Below are positions 13,523 through 53,798 of a DNA stretch of 64,000 nucleotides, in pieces. The translations under genes were made by a program, and so were the position numbers. A model generated the notes under the pieces. That model worked only from the letters and a program-made list of their open reading frames with translations. It did no database searches and was not told where the DNA came from. Position 1 is the first letter of the stretch. Every line of letters starts with the position of its first letter. The stretch is from Minisyncoccota bacterium (GTDB taxonomy: Bacteria > Patescibacteriota > Minisyncoccia > Phycocordibacterales > UBA918): contig JAJOLD010000001.1 of the NCBI GenBank assembly GCA_021129515.1, positions 61,633 to 125,632 of the forward strand. The letters run 5' to 3'.

Positions 13523-13543
13523 GTCCTAGGGGACCCCTAGGAC
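13523..13543. repeat. REP-like palindrome family B (GTCCTAGGGG-A-CCCCTAGGAC), copy 1
   Basis: Perfect 10-bp arms; identical 21-mer at 23315-23335; sits in the divergent intergenic region. Confidence 0.7.
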
Positions 13544-16706: not shown

Positions 16707-17960
16707 ATGAGAAAATTGATACACATGAAACAGACGGCAAAAGACCTCTTTATTCCACATGAAGGCAATGCATATGCGCCAAATGTATTGCAGCGAGTAT
16801 CGATAGGAATCATGGCAGTATTGGTCCTACTCTCGTTTGCCCTCGCGAACCTGCAAGCCTTGTTGTGGATTGGTTCAGATTGGATGGTGGGTACCGTACT
16901 GCCGGCGGTCATTGTCGAACTCACGAATGATGAACGTGCAGATGATACACTCGGTATGCTCACACGAAATGCACTGCTTGATGCTGCAGCAACCCAAAAA
17001 GCAAAACATATGGCACAGCATGAATACTTTGCACACTATAGTCCAGATGGCACGTCTCCATGGCACTGGTTCGATGCCGTAGCATATGACTTTGTGCATG
17101 CGGGGGAGAATCTCGCGGTACACTTTAGTGAATCAGACGCTGTCGTGCATGCATGGATGGACTCACCAGGACATCGTGCAAATATTCTCAACGGTGACTA
17201 CACAGAAATTGGCGTTGGGACGGCACAGGGAACTTATAAGGGCTTCCCAACAGTGTTTGTAGTACAACTCTTTGGAACACCACAGGCTATAGCTGCACCA
17301 CCTGAAACGGTTACCCAAGAACCTCCGAGTACCACCACGCAGCCAACCACCACAACACCCACGACAACCAACAATCCACAGGGTGCACAGCCAACACCGA
17401 CCACCACTCCAATCGAAACTCCACTACTCCAAGATACTGAAGTGGCTGGTGTCGATATCATTGCGTTACCTGTGGTTGAAGAAATAGCACTCGCAGTACC
17501 CACCACCACACCTGCAACTGTCGCTTCTTCTGAAGACACCCCTCCAGAGACCAGCTATGCATCCCCGTCAGATACAGCACTTCTCACCGAGCACCATGAA
17601 ACGGCACCCGCAGAAGAAACGGTACATGAAGTACTGGTGGTATACTCAGATTTTGCGACCACATCACGCAGTGGTGTAGCAGCAATGCTTGGTGCTGATT
17701 CGTTTAGTCATGCTACCTCAGGTGGCACCGCACCAACGGCAGGACTCATGGAGCGGAGCGCTACACAGTCAAGCACCTGGCTCCAAGCAGTGTACGTAAC
17801 GCTTGCTGCGTTTGTCGTCATCGCACTCGTGCTCTCTATTGTGGTTGAGTGGCGAAGACAACATCCTGCGCAAATTGCATACGGCACGGGGCTCTTGGCA
17901 GGAATGGCACTGTTATTCTACGCACATACACTACTAGTCGGCGGTGTCACGATTGTGTAA
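16707..17960 (+). CDS. Membrane-anchored CAP/SCP (YkwD-like) domain protein with Thr/Pro-rich linker and C-terminal TM
   Basis: HYSPDGTSPWHWF...HAWMDSPGHRANILNGDYTEIGVG CAP-domain motifs; TM helices at both ends. Confidence 0.7.
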   Translation: MRKLIHMKQTAKDLFIPHEGNAYAPNVLQRVSIGIMAVLVLLSFALANLQALLWIGSDWMVGTVLPAVIVELTNDERADDTLGMLTRNALLDAAATQKAKHMAQHEYFAHYSPDGTSPWHWFDAVAYDFVHAGENLAVHFSESDAVVHAWMDSPGHRANILNGDYTEIGVGTAQGTYKGFPTVFVVQLFGTPQAIAAPPETVTQEPPSTTTQPTTTTPTTTNNPQGAQPTPTTTPIETPLLQDTEVAGVDIIALPVVEEIALAVPTTTPATVASSEDTPPETSYASPSDTALLTEHHETAPAEETVHEVLVVYSDFATTSRSGVAAMLGADSFSHATSGGTAPTAGLMERSATQSSTWLQAVYVTLAAFVVIALVLSIVVEWRRQHPAQIAYGTGLLAGMALLFYAHTLLVGGVTIV

Positions 17961-22271: not shown

Positions 22272-23306
22272 TTGCAAAGCATATGTCACAGTTTCGCTCC
22301 CTGGTTCCTCGAAATGCATCCAAACCTACGTACCCTAAGTGATGAGTACATTAAAAAAGAGACTATGAGCTACCCAAACAAACAAATTCTCGACACCTTC
22401 ACCGAAGAAACACTGCCTGACTTAGATGTGGTCACGCTTGGTGCGCTCGAGCTCCTTGGTGGTGCCGCGCTCCCAAATATCGACACACTCTTGAGTAAAC
22501 GCACACTTGTGGTCGGCAGTGGCAACGCAGGCGTCACCGGTCGGATCATCTTTGATGGTGTCAAAGCACTTCACGCAGACGAAGGCACCTACAAGCAAAT
22601 TCTTTCAACTGCAAAAGAAAGTCTCGACAGCGCCGTACTCATCTCTGCGTCAGGAGGGAAGCATGCGGTCGAAATCGCTGAGGAATTGAAGCGTTCAGGA
22701 CTCATGGTGCATCTCATGACCACAAATTCAAAAGCAGAGGCAGCGGTCTTTGTCGACAAAGACCGCTGGTATACATTCCCAAAGAATCGAGAGCCATACA
22801 CCTACAACACCTCAACCTACATGAGTATGTTGCTTGCAAAAACAGGGGAAAGTCCGGCGGCAATTTTGGCATTTCTTATGGAAGATACGGCGCGCAGATT
22901 GCCCGATACCTTGGGGCAGTACGACGCCTTCTACTGCATCATTCCACCTGAATTTGCAGCCATGCGCGAGATGTTCACCACAAAGTTTGATGAACTCTTT
23001 GGCGCAAAAGTATCCGGGCGTGTATTTACCTATGAGCAGACCAAGCATGCAAAGACCGTGGTTCCTGGCGACAACGAATGTTTCATAAGCTTTGGAGCAG
23101 AGAACACCACCTTTGGCATCCCCGGCTGCCGCGTGCATGTACCACTTCCACGCGAGGTGGGATGTGTCGGTATGATGGCAGTTGCGTATTACACCATCGG
23201 ACAAATCCAAAAACAGCACCCGCCATACTATAGAGACAACATCCAAAACTACACCCGCGAAGCATCCAAATTATTCGGAAGCATCATTACACCGGTAGTT
23301 GAATAA
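22272..23306 (+). CDS. Hypothetical protein with a possible SIS-like (sugar isomerase) N-terminal fold
   Basis: LVVGSGNAGVTGRII...AVLISASGGKHAVEIAEELKRSG pattern. Start may be MSYPNKQ at 22365. Confidence 0.45.
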   Translation: MQSICHSFAPWFLEMHPNLRTLSDEYIKKETMSYPNKQILDTFTEETLPDLDVVTLGALELLGGAALPNIDTLLSKRTLVVGSGNAGVTGRIIFDGVKALHADEGTYKQILSTAKESLDSAVLISASGGKHAVEIAEELKRSGLMVHLMTTNSKAEAAVFVDKDRWYTFPKNREPYTYNTSTYMSMLLAKTGESPAAILAFLMEDTARRLPDTLGQYDAFYCIIPPEFAAMREMFTTKFDELFGAKVSGRVFTYEQTKHAKTVVPGDNECFISFGAENTTFGIPGCRVHVPLPREVGCVGMMAVAYYTIGQIQKQHPPYYRDNIQNYTREASKLFGSIITPVVE

Positions 23307-23314
23307 ACCCATAC

Positions 23315-23335
23315 GTCCTAGGGGACCCCTAGGAC
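23315..23335. repeat. REP-like palindrome family B, copy 2
   Basis: Identical to 13523-13543; 8 bp after the stop of the upstream gene. Confidence 0.7.
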
Positions 23336-25912: not shown

Positions 25913-26092
25913 GGATTGCTTCGTCATTCCGTTTCACTCCACTTCTCGCAATGACGTCTAGCTGAAACTTACTGTATCCGACTAATTAGTCGGATACAGT
26001 ACGTATGTTGTGTGCTGCGACGGCTAAAAGCGAAGATTTTAGCCGGTGACGAACGCGAAGCGTTCGTCATTGCGAACGGAGTGAAGCAATCC
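25913..26092. repeat. Dense inverted-repeat cluster / MITE-like structured element
   Basis: Terminal inverted segments (GGATTGCTTC...TCGCAATGACG vs CGTCATTGCGA...GAAGCAATCC). Central 30-bp perfect palindrome ACTGTATCCGACTAATTAGTCGGATACAGT (25971-26000). Two further perfect hairpins (CGGCTAAAAgcgaagaTTTTAGCCG; GACGAACGCgaaGCGTTCGTC). Confidence 0.6.
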
Positions 26093-26782: not shown

Positions 26783-26801
26783 TTAGGGATACGAACCCTA
26801 A
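26783..26801. repeat. REP palindrome family A (TTAGGGAT-acg-AACCCTAA), copy 2
   Basis: One mismatch from copy 4 at 33178-33196; lies between convergent genes. Confidence 0.7.
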
Positions 26802-32487: not shown

Positions 32488-32506
32488 TTAGGGTTCGTAT
32501 CCCTAA
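32488..32506. repeat. REP palindrome family A, copy 3 (left flank of RAYT-1)
   Basis: TTAGGGTTCGTATCCCTAA; inverted relative to copy 4. Confidence 0.7.
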
Positions 32507-33177: not shown

Positions 33178-33196
33178 TTAGGGATACGATCCCTAA
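33178..33196. repeat. REP palindrome family A, copy 4 (right flank of RAYT-1)
   Basis: TTAGGGATacgATCCCTAA, 8-bp stem with 3-nt loop. Confidence 0.7.
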
Positions 33197-44617: not shown

Positions 44618-44636
44618 TACAAGGTCCGACCTTGTA
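44618..44636. repeat. Diverged family-C-like palindrome (TACAAGGTC-c-GACCTTGTA) between the T-box terminator and the aspS RBS
   Basis: 9-bp perfect arms; shares the GGTC.GACC core with the RAYT-2 flanking palindromes. Confidence 0.5.
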
Positions 44637-44639
44637 GAT

Positions 44640-44990
44640 TTAATAGTGAATAAAAAACACCCCTACAAACAAACCATAACCCTTAAGGAATGATGTGTTT
44701 GTAGGGGCGCTCGTGGCGCGGTGCCACCCTACGTTCTCCAACCGTATGCAAAGCACATGGTATAGGACTTCATTGTGCGTGTGTCGTACGCGAACGGAGG
44801 GTTCTACTCAATGGGCAACGTTGTATTGACTGCGACATCCAGCAATTTGCTTTAGGTAAGAAGCAAATTGGGATGAAAATTCGCAATAGTCGCGTACGCT
44901 CGTTTACTCATTTTTCCTCCCTCACCTCAGCAGAGTTAGCTGCATCATAGGTGTAGCATCAATACTAGGATGAGCGCTACAATTTGTCAA
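44640..44990 (-). ncRNA. Putative T-box riboswitch leader of aspS, including its promoter and terminator
   Basis: Minus strand: TTGACA-17-TAGTAT promoter (44990-44962); T-box sequence UAGGGUGGCACCGCG (complement of 44717-44730); terminator hairpin CCCCUACAAACA...UGUUUGUAGGGG followed by a U-run (44707-44652). Confidence 0.6.
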
Positions 44991-50918: not shown

Positions 50919-50946
50919 AAGAGTCTGCAACAGCTGTTGCAGACTC
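50919..50946. terminator. Bidirectional terminator (12-bp perfect stem)
   Basis: aaaaAGAGTCTGCAACagcTGTTGCAGACTCT. Confidence 0.75.
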
Positions 50947-50952
50947 TCTGTG

Positions 50953-51441: not shown

Positions 51442-51494
51442 AACGACATTATATGGTCATGAAACCAAATTTTCTTATAAGCCTCGGGATAAGA

Positions 51495-51517
51495 ATACAG
51501 GGGTCGGACCCCTGTAT
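51495..51517. repeat. REP palindrome family C (ATACAGGGGTC|GGACCCCTGTAT), left flank of RAYT-2
   Basis: Perfect 23-bp palindrome. Confidence 0.75.
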
Positions 51518-51533
51518 AGGATATACTAAAATC

Positions 51534-52157
51534 ATGCCAAGAAATCTTACTCCCCTTATTACGGGCGAAACATACCATATATACAATAGAGGTACTGAGA
51601 AGAGAAATATTTTCTGTGATAAGCAAGATTACCTCAGGTTTTATGCATCATTAGACCGTTTCAATATTGAAGAACCAGTTTTGAGCTTGCGGGATGCGAA
51701 AAGAAATAGTGATACAGATATCAAGCGTCTTGTTTCTATATCTGCATATTGCTTACTTCCAAATCATTTCCATCTTATGATGACTCAGTTATTGGATGGC
51801 GGTATTAGTGAATTCTTAAAAAGAGTCACTGGTGGTTACAGTGGCTATTTTAATGAAAAAAACAATCGTTCAGGCTCTCTATTTCAAGGTAAATTTAAAC
51901 GCATTCATGTAGATAGTGAAGCATACAGGCAATATTTGCTTGTATACATCAATGAAAATCATCATGTACATAAACTTGATGGTGTTTGTGATATATATCA
52001 TACAAGTTCCGTGCATTATCAGGGTCTCAAGCGCAGTAATCTTATTCAAGACAGTCATATCGAAAAATATTCAACACAAGAAGCCAAAAAGTTGGCAGCT
52101 GATATATACCAAAGACGAAATGCTGAAAAGAAACTACTTCAAGTCTTAGGTGAATAA
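51534..52157 (+). CDS. REP-associated tyrosine transposase (RAYT), paralogue 2
   Basis: YHIYNRG, HUH motif NHFHLMMTQ, Tyr motif LLVYINENHHVH; about 55 % identical to paralogue 1; flanked by family-C palindromes. Confidence 0.8.
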   Translation: MPRNLTPLITGETYHIYNRGTEKRNIFCDKQDYLRFYASLDRFNIEEPVLSLRDAKRNSDTDIKRLVSISAYCLLPNHFHLMMTQLLDGGISEFLKRVTGGYSGYFNEKNNRSGSLFQGKFKRIHVDSEAYRQYLLVYINENHHVHKLDGVCDIYHTSSVHYQGLKRSNLIQDSHIEKYSTQEAKKLAADIYQRRNAEKKLLQVLGE

Positions 52158-52163
52158 ATACAC

Positions 52164-52188
52164 TATACAGGGGTCGGACCCCTGTATA
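52164..52188. repeat. REP palindrome family C, right flank of RAYT-2
   Basis: TATACAGGGGTCGGACCCCTGTATA, perfect 25-bp palindrome. Confidence 0.75.
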
Positions 52189-52204: not shown

Positions 52205-52621
52205 TTACATGCGATTTATTGCATAGGTTGTGGCGTCCTGTACGTGTTTAAATCTATCTCCCATAAGCTTGATGCCACCAAACCAGCGGGTGACACAGAC
52301 GACACAGTTTGAGACATCTTGTTTTTGCATAATGCGGAGAATGACCATACCGGCACCGGTCTCACCGTCGTCATTCTTTGTTTCAAAAATAGCTCCATCT
52401 TTGCTAATACGTGCTGCCCATGAGTTGTGTGTTGCTTTTGCGTACTTTTTGTTTTGTTTGAGTGTTTTGAGGAATTGTTTGATATCTTCCCCACCTTCGA
52501 CTCTTCCGATACTCACAGAATAGATACTGCCACGGTCTTTGATAATCTTTTCATACAGCACAAAAGAACCTTGCGGTTCTTTTGTGTCTCCAAAATCAAA
52601 TTGTGTGTTTTGCTTGGGCAT
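52205..52621 (-). CDS. IMPACT/YigZ (UPF0029) family protein
   Basis: ATHNSWAAR...DDGETGAGMVIL...VCVTRWFGGIKLMG. The longer ORF-track N-terminus overlaps dnaJ and was trimmed to Met 52621. Confidence 0.75.
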   Translation of the reverse strand: MPKQNTQFDFGDTKEPQGSFVLYEKIIKDRGSIYSVSIGRVEGGEDIKQFLKTLKQNKKYAKATHNSWAARISKDGAIFETKNDDGETGAGMVILRIMQKQDVSNCVVCVTRWFGGIKLMGDRFKHVQDATTYAINRM

Positions 52622-52733
52622 GATGTGACTATGGAGATGTAAGTGGTCGCTCTCTGGATTGCCTGCCTGTGCATGTTCACATGCAATCGGGCTTGTCACT
52701 TCACTTCGTTTCGCTCCTCGCAATGACGGTAGG

Positions 52734-53798
52734 CTATATTCCTTCATTTCGTAAGTCCTCCACGAGCTTTTTTGCTTTCCGTGACAGTTTCTGTGGAATA
52801 TCGATTGCAACCTTAACCATGAAGTCGCCGCGTTTGCCCTGTACAGGCACCCCCTTTCCTTTGATGCGGAGCATTTCTCCATGACTGATGCCTGCAGGTA
52901 TCTTGATAGTCACTTCTCCATCGAGGGTCTCTACAGCGTATGAGCTGCCGAGTATTGCATCAGATAGTTTTACGCGGAGTGGGCTGATGAGCGTTGCACC
53001 TTCGCGTTTGATGCTCTCGTGTGGTGCAACGTGAATCTTTACATAGAGATCGCCCGGTGTACCGCCAGGCACTGCTTCTCCATGTCCGGTAAGGCGGACC
53101 ATTTCACCATGTTCGATGCCTGCTGGGATGTTGATTTGTACCTCGTCATCACTACGGCGCACGCCAGTTCCAGAACAGTTTGCACAGACCTCCTTCGGAA
53201 TCTGTCCCTTGCCGTGACACTTGCTACATTCGCGAACGGTCGCAAAATTCCCCATGATACTCTGACGCACTTCACGTATTTTTCCATTTCCGTTACACAC
53301 GTCGCAGGTAGTCGTCTCAGATGGGTTTTTTGCTCCTGTTCCGTTACAGGTCGTACATTCGTTGTTCTTGGTGAGCTTGAGTGAACGCTTGGTACCAAAC
53401 ACTGCTTCTTTGAATGAAAGCTCAATATCGACAGAGATATCGTTACCCCGCGCACGACCGCCTCCTCGCCCGCCACCAAACATATCACCAAAGTTCTCAA
53501 AGATGTCGTTAATATCAAACTCAACGCCACCTTGTCCTCCCTGGAATCCGCCAAAGCCACCGAAGCCTGCACCTGGTCCACCTGCAGCCCCGTTGTATGA
53601 ACGACCATAGGTATCGTACTCGGCACGTTTTTTGTCATCAGAGAGCACTGAGTATGCCTCGCTGATTTCTTTGAACTTGGCTTCGTCTCCCGTTTTTTTG
53701 TCAGGGTGGTACTTACCGGCGAGTTTGCGAAAGGCCTTCTTCACGTCAGTCTTCGACGCGCTTTTTTCGACACCAAGAATTTGATAGTAGTCCTTCAT
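52734..53798 (-). CDS. dnaJ: Chaperone DnaJ
   Basis: J-domain with HPD; four CxxCxGxG repeats. Confidence 0.95.

Follow-up and report, generated by a model that had tools for sequence, protein, structure and literature searches.

Most work on repetitive extragenic palindromes (REPs) and the REP-associated tyrosine transposases (RAYTs) has dealt with Proteobacteria and Cyanobacteria, and the joint persistence of a single-copy transposase gene and its repeats is still debated. Here, a gene of this kind and the palindromes that bracket it are described from positions 51495 to 52188 of a 64,000-nucleotide stretch, the window, of a Minisyncoccota bacterium (GenBank assembly GCA_021129515.1, contig JAJOLD010000001.1, positions 61,633 to 125,632). 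In a REPtron, REPs lie on both sides of their cognate tnpAREP gene, and each paralog has a REP family of its own (PMC6006769, PMC3733652, PMC5581495), and a GT[AG]G tetranucleotide at the 5′ foot of the repeat together with Y---NP and W[EQ] motifs in the protein belong to the class 2 and REP definitions (PMC6006769, Quentin et al. 2018). The genes for tyrosine transposases that are associated with terminal inverted repeats (TIRYT genes) correspond to TnpAY1 subclass 2.1 (PMC6006769), or group 1 of Bertels, which has also been reported in Clostridia (PMC5581495); the repeats on either side of TIRYT genes were reported to carry a GGGGWSAS motif (PMC3733652, Di Nocera et al. 2013), and subclass 2.1 has been described as being without REP-like structures. 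REPs lying in frame inside tnpAREP genes were described as unique to subclass 2.4, in which they fall between the HUH and tyrosine motifs (Quentin et al. 2018, PMC6006769). A literature search for RAYT-REP systems in Patescibacteria or the Candidate Phyla Radiation found no description, only one incidental KEGG annotation. With a probability of roughly 70%, we consider the window locus to be a REPtron-like cassette, consisting of a resident, vertically inherited class 2 Y1 endonuclease gene (RAYT/TIRYT type) and its cognate hairpins, with conversion or the enzyme itself preserving their identity to each other.

The upstream palindrome (51495 to 51517; ATACAGGGGTCGGACCCCTGTAT) is 23 nt long and perfect, with 11-bp arms (ATACAGGGGTC and GACCCCTGTAT) around a central G, and the downstream palindrome (52164 to 52188; TATACAGGGGTCGGACCCCTGTATA) is 25 nt long and also perfect, with 12-bp arms (TATACAGGGGTC and GACCCCTGTATA) and a central G; neither was assigned a strand. 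The hairpin-to-hairpin unit spans 694 bp (51495 to 52188). An earlier note on this DNA, made from the letters alone, had placed perfect palindromes of 23 and 25 bp at these positions, and both the coordinates and the lengths were confirmed. Exactly two copies of the shared 21-nt core are present in the window, the core was absent from all 100 dinucleotide shuffles, and a relaxed search with the 13-nt core GGGGTCNGACCCC, allowing up to 2 mismatches, identified no additional copy in the window. Folding as single-stranded DNA (ssDNA) gave −9.7 kcal/mol for the upstream and −9.9 kcal/mol for the downstream palindrome, with stems of 10 to 11 bp (10 bp in the upstream copy) and 3-nt loops, and none of 200 shuffles was as stable. 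The orientation of the two copies is direct, since their center base on the plus strand is the same. No GT[AG]G tetranucleotide was present at the foot of either hairpin, where the flanks read aagaATACAGGGG and cactaTACAGGGG. The palindrome pair is thus real and nonrandom by the shuffles.

Between the two palindromes lies a RAYT-like class 2 Y1 HUH gene (51534 to 52157, plus strand; 207 amino acids), hereafter the main gene. The center of the upstream palindrome is 29 nt 5′ of ATG 51534, and the downstream palindrome begins 6 nt past the stop codon, with its center 18 nt past it. The mechanically called open reading frame (ORF; 51453 to 52157) reads across the upstream palindrome. Among 2,610 homologs, the closest were 201 to 215 amino acids long and started with MPRK at the position of ATG 51534, and the sole other N-terminal extension in the alignment, in P0037, was also a read-through of a hairpin, one that codes for GSDP. 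The shorter gene is therefore the supported one, in agreement with the start proposed in the earlier note. That note had also named a flank belonging to a longer, conserved coding sequence as the outcome that would speak against it; the flank is not conserved coding sequence, and a longer frame spanning the upstream palindrome was rejected given where the homologs start.

The HUH motif of the main protein reads NHFH (51762 to 51773; residues 77 to 80), and the catalytic tyrosine, Tyr138 (51945 to 51947), lies in YINENH. In an alignment of 38 sequences, N77 and H80 were invariant and H78 was present in at least 90%, while NH[FYV]H was found in 120/120 top homologs. Y138 was invariant in the alignment and placed on a modeled helix (129 to 140); across the 120 homologs the tyrosine motif was Y[IV]NxN, with H, N, D, or Y as the next residue. 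At the position of the tryptophan motif, the main gene and 115 of the 120 homologs encode LFQG. A Pfam scan matched a single domain, Y1_Tnp (PF01797), with a score of 22.9 bits where the gathering threshold is 23.0, and most homologs had a precomputed PF01797 hit. The NCBIfam model NF047646 (REP_Tyr_transpos; cutoff, 80 bits) scored 30.0 bits for the main gene and 22.3 bits for its paralog in the window. Searches of the PDB by sequence, using either the single protein or the family profile, returned nothing significant (best E value, 0.26, to ISDra2 TnpA). An AlphaFold2 (AF2) model built on the family alignment had a mean predicted local distance difference test score of 89.9, and Foldseek matched it best to 4er8_A, the structure of E. 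coli TnpAREP in complex with a REP hairpin (E value, 3e−6), followed by the IS608 and ISDra2 TnpA proteins; all of the top 25 PDB matches were Y1 transposases (4er8, 2vic, 2a6m, 2xm3, and others). The link to TnpAREP thus came from the fold search only and not from the sequence searches. The C-terminal tail was modeled as a single long helix (181 to 206). On these predictions, the main protein is a Y1 HUH enzyme with a modeled shape closest to that of RAYTs, and the RAYT-type assignment of the earlier note holds, with the HUH and tyrosine motifs intact.

Loci encoding relatives were collected in a metagenome scan that returned 80 of them (at least 567 candidates encoded a relative); by profile search, the family comprises 1,141 clusters at 50% identity (E value, ≤1e−30). 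A set of 83 loci, mostly Patescibacteria-type contigs, was assembled by adding both window genes, two loci from Clostridia, and three that are syntenic to those scan loci that had enough flank, and a pair was counted as matched when the upstream palindrome had arms of ≥7 bp and its downstream partner had ≤3 mismatches in 17 nt. Matched palindromes were present at both gene ends in 55/83 family loci versus 5/319 control ORFs, the latter being the other ORFs of ≥150 amino acids in the same loci. The palindrome bracket is a family trait. The modal hairpin center lay 27 nt 5′ of the ATG on the upstream side and 13 nt past the stop codon on the downstream side, and the family consensus was (C)ACTTGG...CCAAGT(G). 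The palindromes varied by locus (for example, CACTTGGCGGTTTAACCGCCAAGTG, ATTTGGACGTCCGACGTCCAAAT, and TTGTAGGTGTCCGACACCTACAA), and both copies in one locus matched each other. Loop orientation is not fixed in the family, as 31 of the 55 pairs were direct and 24 were inverted.

Co-divergence of gene and palindrome, in line with the RAYT/REP co-evolution to which the earlier note referred, was borne out across 58 loci (the 55 matched loci plus L132, L133, and L134, which were fetched later and have matched pairs). Protein distance correlated with stem distance (Spearman, 0.395), and none of 2,000 Mantel permutations was as high, a correlation that would also be expected of any linked sequence sharing the phylogeny of the protein. 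Stem differences among loci were even numbers without exception, and therefore both arms changed together.

Of 53 relatives whose flanking palindromes matched, 41 also had in-frame copies of the cognate palindrome inside the gene (for example, L057, L066, L068, and L071). These copies occupied two fixed positions, at approximately nt 185 to 200 and nt 443 to 491 (∼aa 60 and ∼aa 152), and were translated as, for example, QLGGETSKL; in the gene of L068 (5980 to 6642), they were centered at gene nt 188 and 467. Where such copies occur, all three to four palindromes of a gene covary between lineages. They were present in more distant relatives and absent from the main gene and its Saccharibacteria clade.

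The main gene is flanked on one side by a gene for a 162-amino-acid membrane protein and on the other by yigZ (Impact_N), followed by dnaJ, dnaK, grpE, and ribosomal-protein genes, and the arrangement is identical in two independent assemblies. Six further close homologs (51 to 57% identical) were looked up, and all were located at the same yigZ-dnaJ-dnaK site, making 7/7 with the main gene. Each of the seven loci has its own perfect palindrome pair, with the core TACAGGGGTCGGACCCCTGTA in the window and GTAAGGTGTTAAACACCTTAC, GTAAGGGGTCCGACCCCTTAC, TTTAGGGGTTTAACCCCTAAA, TGGAGGGGTTTAACCCCTCCA, GTAAGGGATCGGATCCCTTAC, and CTTAGGGGTGACACCCCTAAG in L124, L125, L127, L132, L133, and L134, respectively. 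The cassette has thus been retained at a single position of the chromosome across Saccharibacteria while its palindrome was replaced in both copies and in both arms. The entire cassette bounded by the palindromes is flipped in L124 (6459 to 7215) with respect to yigZ and the membrane-protein gene; an inversion of this sort could be mediated by identical perfect palindromes at the two ends. In two more distant genomes, the membrane-protein gene comes immediately after yigZ and the interval contains no palindrome, and in one closer genome an unrelated gene occupies the cassette site. YigZ is 75 to 80% identical among these genomes, compared with 51 to 57% for the Y1 gene, which therefore evolves much faster than this neighbor. 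These observations fit a gene that is long resident, vertically inherited, and sometimes lost, rather than a recently transposing insertion sequence (IS).

Further palindromes were seen at two of these loci. L125 has a third copy of its own palindrome (1569 to 1595) inside a called peptidase M17 ORF, and in L124 the sequence AATACAGGGGTTTAACCCCTGTATT (17068 to 17092) lies right after the peptidase M17 gene and resembles the main-gene palindrome, although the L124 Y1 gene itself has a different palindrome. In the window, the mechanical ORF of yigZ (52205 to 52882, minus strand) has 225 amino acids and the called gene 180, whereas nearly all homologs have ∼138; the gene probably has its true start downstream of the called one, near 52621.

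The second Y1 gene of the window, paralog 1, lies on the minus strand (33137 to 32514) and also encodes 207 amino acids. The earlier note had rightly recognized two paralogs and put their identity at about 55%, slightly above the values obtained here (52% over 198 amino acids by tblastn and 51% in a MAFFT alignment). Searching the window with tblastn identified paralog 1 as the one paralog and no near-identical copies of the cassette. The HUH motif of paralog 1 reads NRFH, and the arginine at codon 78 in place of the first histidine was unique among 121 sequences checked, which may leave the metal site impaired. Its family A palindromes are located upstream (33178 to 33196; TTAGGGATCGTATCCCTAA on the gene strand) and downstream (32488 to 32506; TTAGGGATACGAACCCTAA on the gene strand), the latter being imperfect and inverted relative to the former. 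The NRFH motif and the short (8 bp), partly imperfect palindromes may point to decay or altered chemistry. Two additional unstranded copies of family A are dispersed and extragenic, one at 323 to 341 (TTAGGGATGCAATCCCTAA) and one at 26783 to 26801, between convergent gene ends, that equals the reverse complement of the copy at 32488; the total of four compares with 0.14 expected. The closest match of paralog 1 was P0039 (55%), which is located at the yigZ site, the site of the main gene, and both paralogs were equidistant from all relatives, leaving the duplication undatable.

Outside the window, the main-gene palindrome has a wider distribution. A scan of 185,579 species genomes for the exact 21-mer TACAGGGGTCNGACCCCTGTA identified 41 loci. 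Four other Saccharibacteria metagenome-assembled genomes (MAGs) carried one to four loci each, and no Y1 gene was detected at any of them except L016, where one lies ∼5 kb from the 21-mer and next to a core doublet. L003 and L035 contain inverted, REPIN-like doublets. The 21-mer was also present in several other Patescibacteria, and among 15 Patescibacteria loci, 10 copies were extragenic and 5 lay within mechanically called long ORFs. Extended to GCGTATACAGGGGTCWGACCCCTGTATACGC, it is a high-copy repeat in two MAGs, Oscillospiraceae SIG609 SVQE01 and Clostridia CAMYWU01. At loci of the class Clostridia (L009, L013, L023, L026, L028, L030, and L033), the 21-mer often occurred in composite tandem units every 138 to 320 bp, and in Clostridia MAGs two copies bracket a 250-amino-acid Y1_Tnp gene whose product is ∼30% identical to the main protein. 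It was further found in two actinobacterial MAGs, with L005, L012, and L040 as Bifidobacteriaceae and actinobacterial loci. The identity of a 21-nt hairpin across phyla was unexpected and could reflect either a conserved recognition motif or horizontal transfer. The proposal of the earlier note that each paralog has its own REP family therefore stands in part: each has its own matched pair, and dispersed copies accompany family A (323 and 26783), whereas the main palindrome has none in the 64 kb beyond its two flanking copies.

The sequence around the upstream palindrome was examined for expression signals. A −10-like hexamer, TATACT (51522 to 51527, plus strand), is located at −12 to −7 from ATG 51534, and no Shine-Dalgarno-like sequence was identified at the usual distance before this ATG. 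Among the 58 family loci, a TAnnnT hexamer starting exactly at −12 from the ATG was found in 30 and a Shine-Dalgarno-like motif in 7. These motifs suggest that the main gene is probably transcribed as a leaderless mRNA, with the −10 box just 3′ of the upstream palindrome; in many relatives, the TTGG arm of the palindrome can serve as a −35 element. On the minus strand, the downstream palindrome had a terminator-like score for the convergent yigZ. No T-tract was present at the upstream copy or on the plus strand of the downstream copy.

Compared with the described systems, the cassette shares its organization with REPtrons such as those of E. coli TnpAREP (4ER8) and the Pseudomonas and Stenotrophomonas RAYTs. 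Like these, it encodes a Y1 HUH/Tyr protein, the model of which best matches 4ER8; hairpin-forming repeats bracket the gene, with one repeat type for each paralog and co-divergence of gene and repeat; and the paralogs are few, divergent (52%), and vertically inherited. It differs in that the repeats are perfect symmetric palindromes lacking the 5′ GT[AG]G foot, and the loop orientation of the flanking pair is direct here and mixed across the family. The protein has Y[IV]NxN[HND] rather than Y---NP and FQ in place of W[EQ], and scores 30 rather than 80 bits with the NCBIfam equivalog; there are also no dispersed copies of the main palindrome within 64 kb, and the host belongs to Patescibacteria.

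With the TIRYT genes and their TIRtrons, the family shares an NH[YF]H-type HUH motif, FQ instead of WQ, a conserved SS motif after the core, and a low repeat copy number. The palindrome core resembles the GGGGWSAS motif, which GGGGTCGG matches here at 7/8 positions and GGGGTCAG, from the same palindrome in other genomes, at 8/8. Unlike in TIRtrons, each flanking repeat is a full, self-complementary palindrome rather than a single arm of a terminal inverted repeat, and the C-terminal helix-turn-helix-like domain (Bac_DnaA_C, HTH_23, or HTH_28 in Pfam) is missing, the tail being a single helix in the AF2 model. By its motifs (NH[YF]H, FQ, and SS) and the GGGG-type repeat, the main gene appears closest to subclass 2.1/TIRYT. 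Subclass 2.4 (Bertels group 4) is resembled in its NH[IFV]H motif and by the distant relatives with an in-frame cognate palindrome in the coding sequence. However, the insertions in these relatives are located before the HUH motif (∼aa 60) and after the tyrosine (∼aa 152), not between them, the main gene and the Saccharibacteria clade have no intragenic copy, and the YIxNNP and WQ motifs of subclass 2.4 were not found.

For the REPtron-like cassette, the following mechanism can be proposed. The product would most likely recognize the hairpin-forming palindrome present as the two bracketing copies, binding the extruded hairpin on ssDNA and cutting and rejoining near its foot with a metal ion held by H78 and H80 and with Tyr138; DNA binding and cleavage are predicted here from the conserved motifs and the model. 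Either this activity or gene conversion between the copies would hold the flanking palindromes identical and occasionally seed copies elsewhere. The upstream copy would overlie the −35/spacer region of a leaderless-mRNA promoter and may also provide autoregulation, and the downstream copy could double as a terminator or mRNA-end hairpin for two convergent genes.

Several points weigh against this interpretation. Strict RAYT signatures are absent: the NCBIfam score is 30 versus 80 bits, the Pfam score lies at the edge of its threshold (22.9 versus 23.0 bits), Y---NH stands where Y---NP would be expected, the tryptophan motif reads FQ, and the hairpins lack a GT[AG]G foot. The promoter and leaderless mRNA are proposed from motif position only, and the window copy has no recognizable −35 element. 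Shared phylogeny of linked sequences would give the same co-divergence correlation. Finally, with no window copies beyond the two flanking ones, the main-gene palindrome could be a private pair and not a REP family.

A more far-reaching interpretation, which we regard as tentative and rather doubtful, would assign the Patescibacteria genes to a separate, as yet undescribed subclass of domesticated Y1 endonucleases in which the hairpin is rewritten in concert at every gene-attached copy. Such rewriting would cover the promoter-overlapping upstream site, the downstream site, and the two in-frame sites in most Parcubacteria-type relatives. If true, the enzyme, or conversion triggered by it, would edit its own locus, and streamlined genomes of ∼1 Mb would keep the gene for host-level ssDNA processing and not as a parasite.

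The 694-bp unit could instead be an autonomous IS200-like insertion sequence that transposes as one cassette and has the palindromes as its left and right ends. The hairpins do lie exactly at the edges of a unit of ∼700 bp, they are in direct orientation in the window as are the ends of IS200/IS605 elements (IS608 and ISDra2), the fold is that of IS200/IS605 TnpA, the site is filled in some Saccharibacteria and empty in others, and the L124 cassette is inverted. Nevertheless, the only two copies in the window are 52% identical and have different hairpins, no near-identical copies were found there, and the seven homologs that share one syntenic site have diverged to 51 to 57% identity, which argues for long residence and not recent transposition. 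The motifs are those of class 2 (NHFH and Y---N, here YINEN) and not those of IS200/IS605 (subclass 1.1; DH[VI]H and Y---Q), the protein has 207 rather than ∼150 amino acids, and the ends are identical perfect palindromes, whereas IS200/IS605 elements have imperfect hairpins that differ between left and right. An element of this type is therefore considered improbable.

About equally unlikely is an explanation in which the palindromes are ordinary expression signals of this gene and its neighbors, an operator lying over the promoter and a bidirectional terminator, and the protein is a DNA-binding regulator or an inactive relic that neither cleaves nor mobilizes DNA. The upstream copy adjoins a −10-like box at a conserved distance, the downstream copy is terminator-like for yigZ on the minus strand, the palindrome is limited to two copies in 64 kb, and the HUH motif of paralog 1 is damaged, all of which would suit this role. 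Retention of the HUH and tyrosine motifs in the main gene and in 120/120 top homologs would, however, be unexpected of a pure regulator, and in related genomes these palindromes are also found at a distance from the gene, as inverted doublets and arrays. In-frame copies at two fixed positions within distant relatives and the lack of T-tracts also argue against it. Chance or an assembly artifact was ruled out as the origin of the palindrome pair, given its absence from the 100 shuffles, the identical locus in two independent assemblies, and the same architecture in dozens of homologous loci; nothing was identified in its favor, and it is hardly conceivable.

Other palindromes were identified in the window. 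Family B, (G)TCCTAGGGGACCCCTAGGA(C), is present as two identical extragenic copies 10 kb apart (13524 to 13542 and 23316 to 23334), and no Y1 gene was associated with it in the window. Its general architecture is like that of the palindromes flanking relatives of the main gene (for example, TAGGGGTTAAACCCCTA in L045), and it may be an orphan repeat family. A single unstranded palindrome of the same general architecture, TACAAGGTCCGACCTTGTA (44618 to 44636), lies in the aspS leader, with a terminator-like hairpin on one side and the aspS ATG (44601) on the other. The earlier note had described it as a diverged relative of the main-gene palindrome, located next to a T-box terminator. Its position as a single copy in the aspS leader was verified; kinship fits the general architecture and is unproven, and the palindrome may be an orphan relative. 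The terminator-like hairpin was likewise found, whereas the Rfam T-box model reached 21.7 bits against a gathering score of 93 in the leader (44700 to 44957, minus strand), which contains AGGGTGGCACCGCG and the hairpin and looks like a divergent T-box below standard thresholds; at the gathering threshold, Rfam identified nothing in the whole window. Long perfect palindromes with zero-length loops were seen at 25970 to 26001 (32 bp), 22741 to 22768 (28 bp), and 50920 to 50947 (28 bp), unrelated in sequence to families A and B and to the main-gene palindrome. The window has 32 palindromes with arms of ≥8 bp in total, compared with ∼5 in shuffles.

The main-gene cassette is a new branch of the known RAYT/REP system and not a new kind of system. 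Its logic is now seen in the smallest free-standing bacterial genomes, and residence at one fixed chromosomal site makes comparison feasible ortholog by ortholog. The compact protein of 207 amino acids and the 21-nt perfect hairpin are suited to biochemistry. With the palindrome replaced seven ways in seven lineages, each time in both arms and both copies, the locus offers a natural experiment on the co-evolution of a protein and its DNA target.

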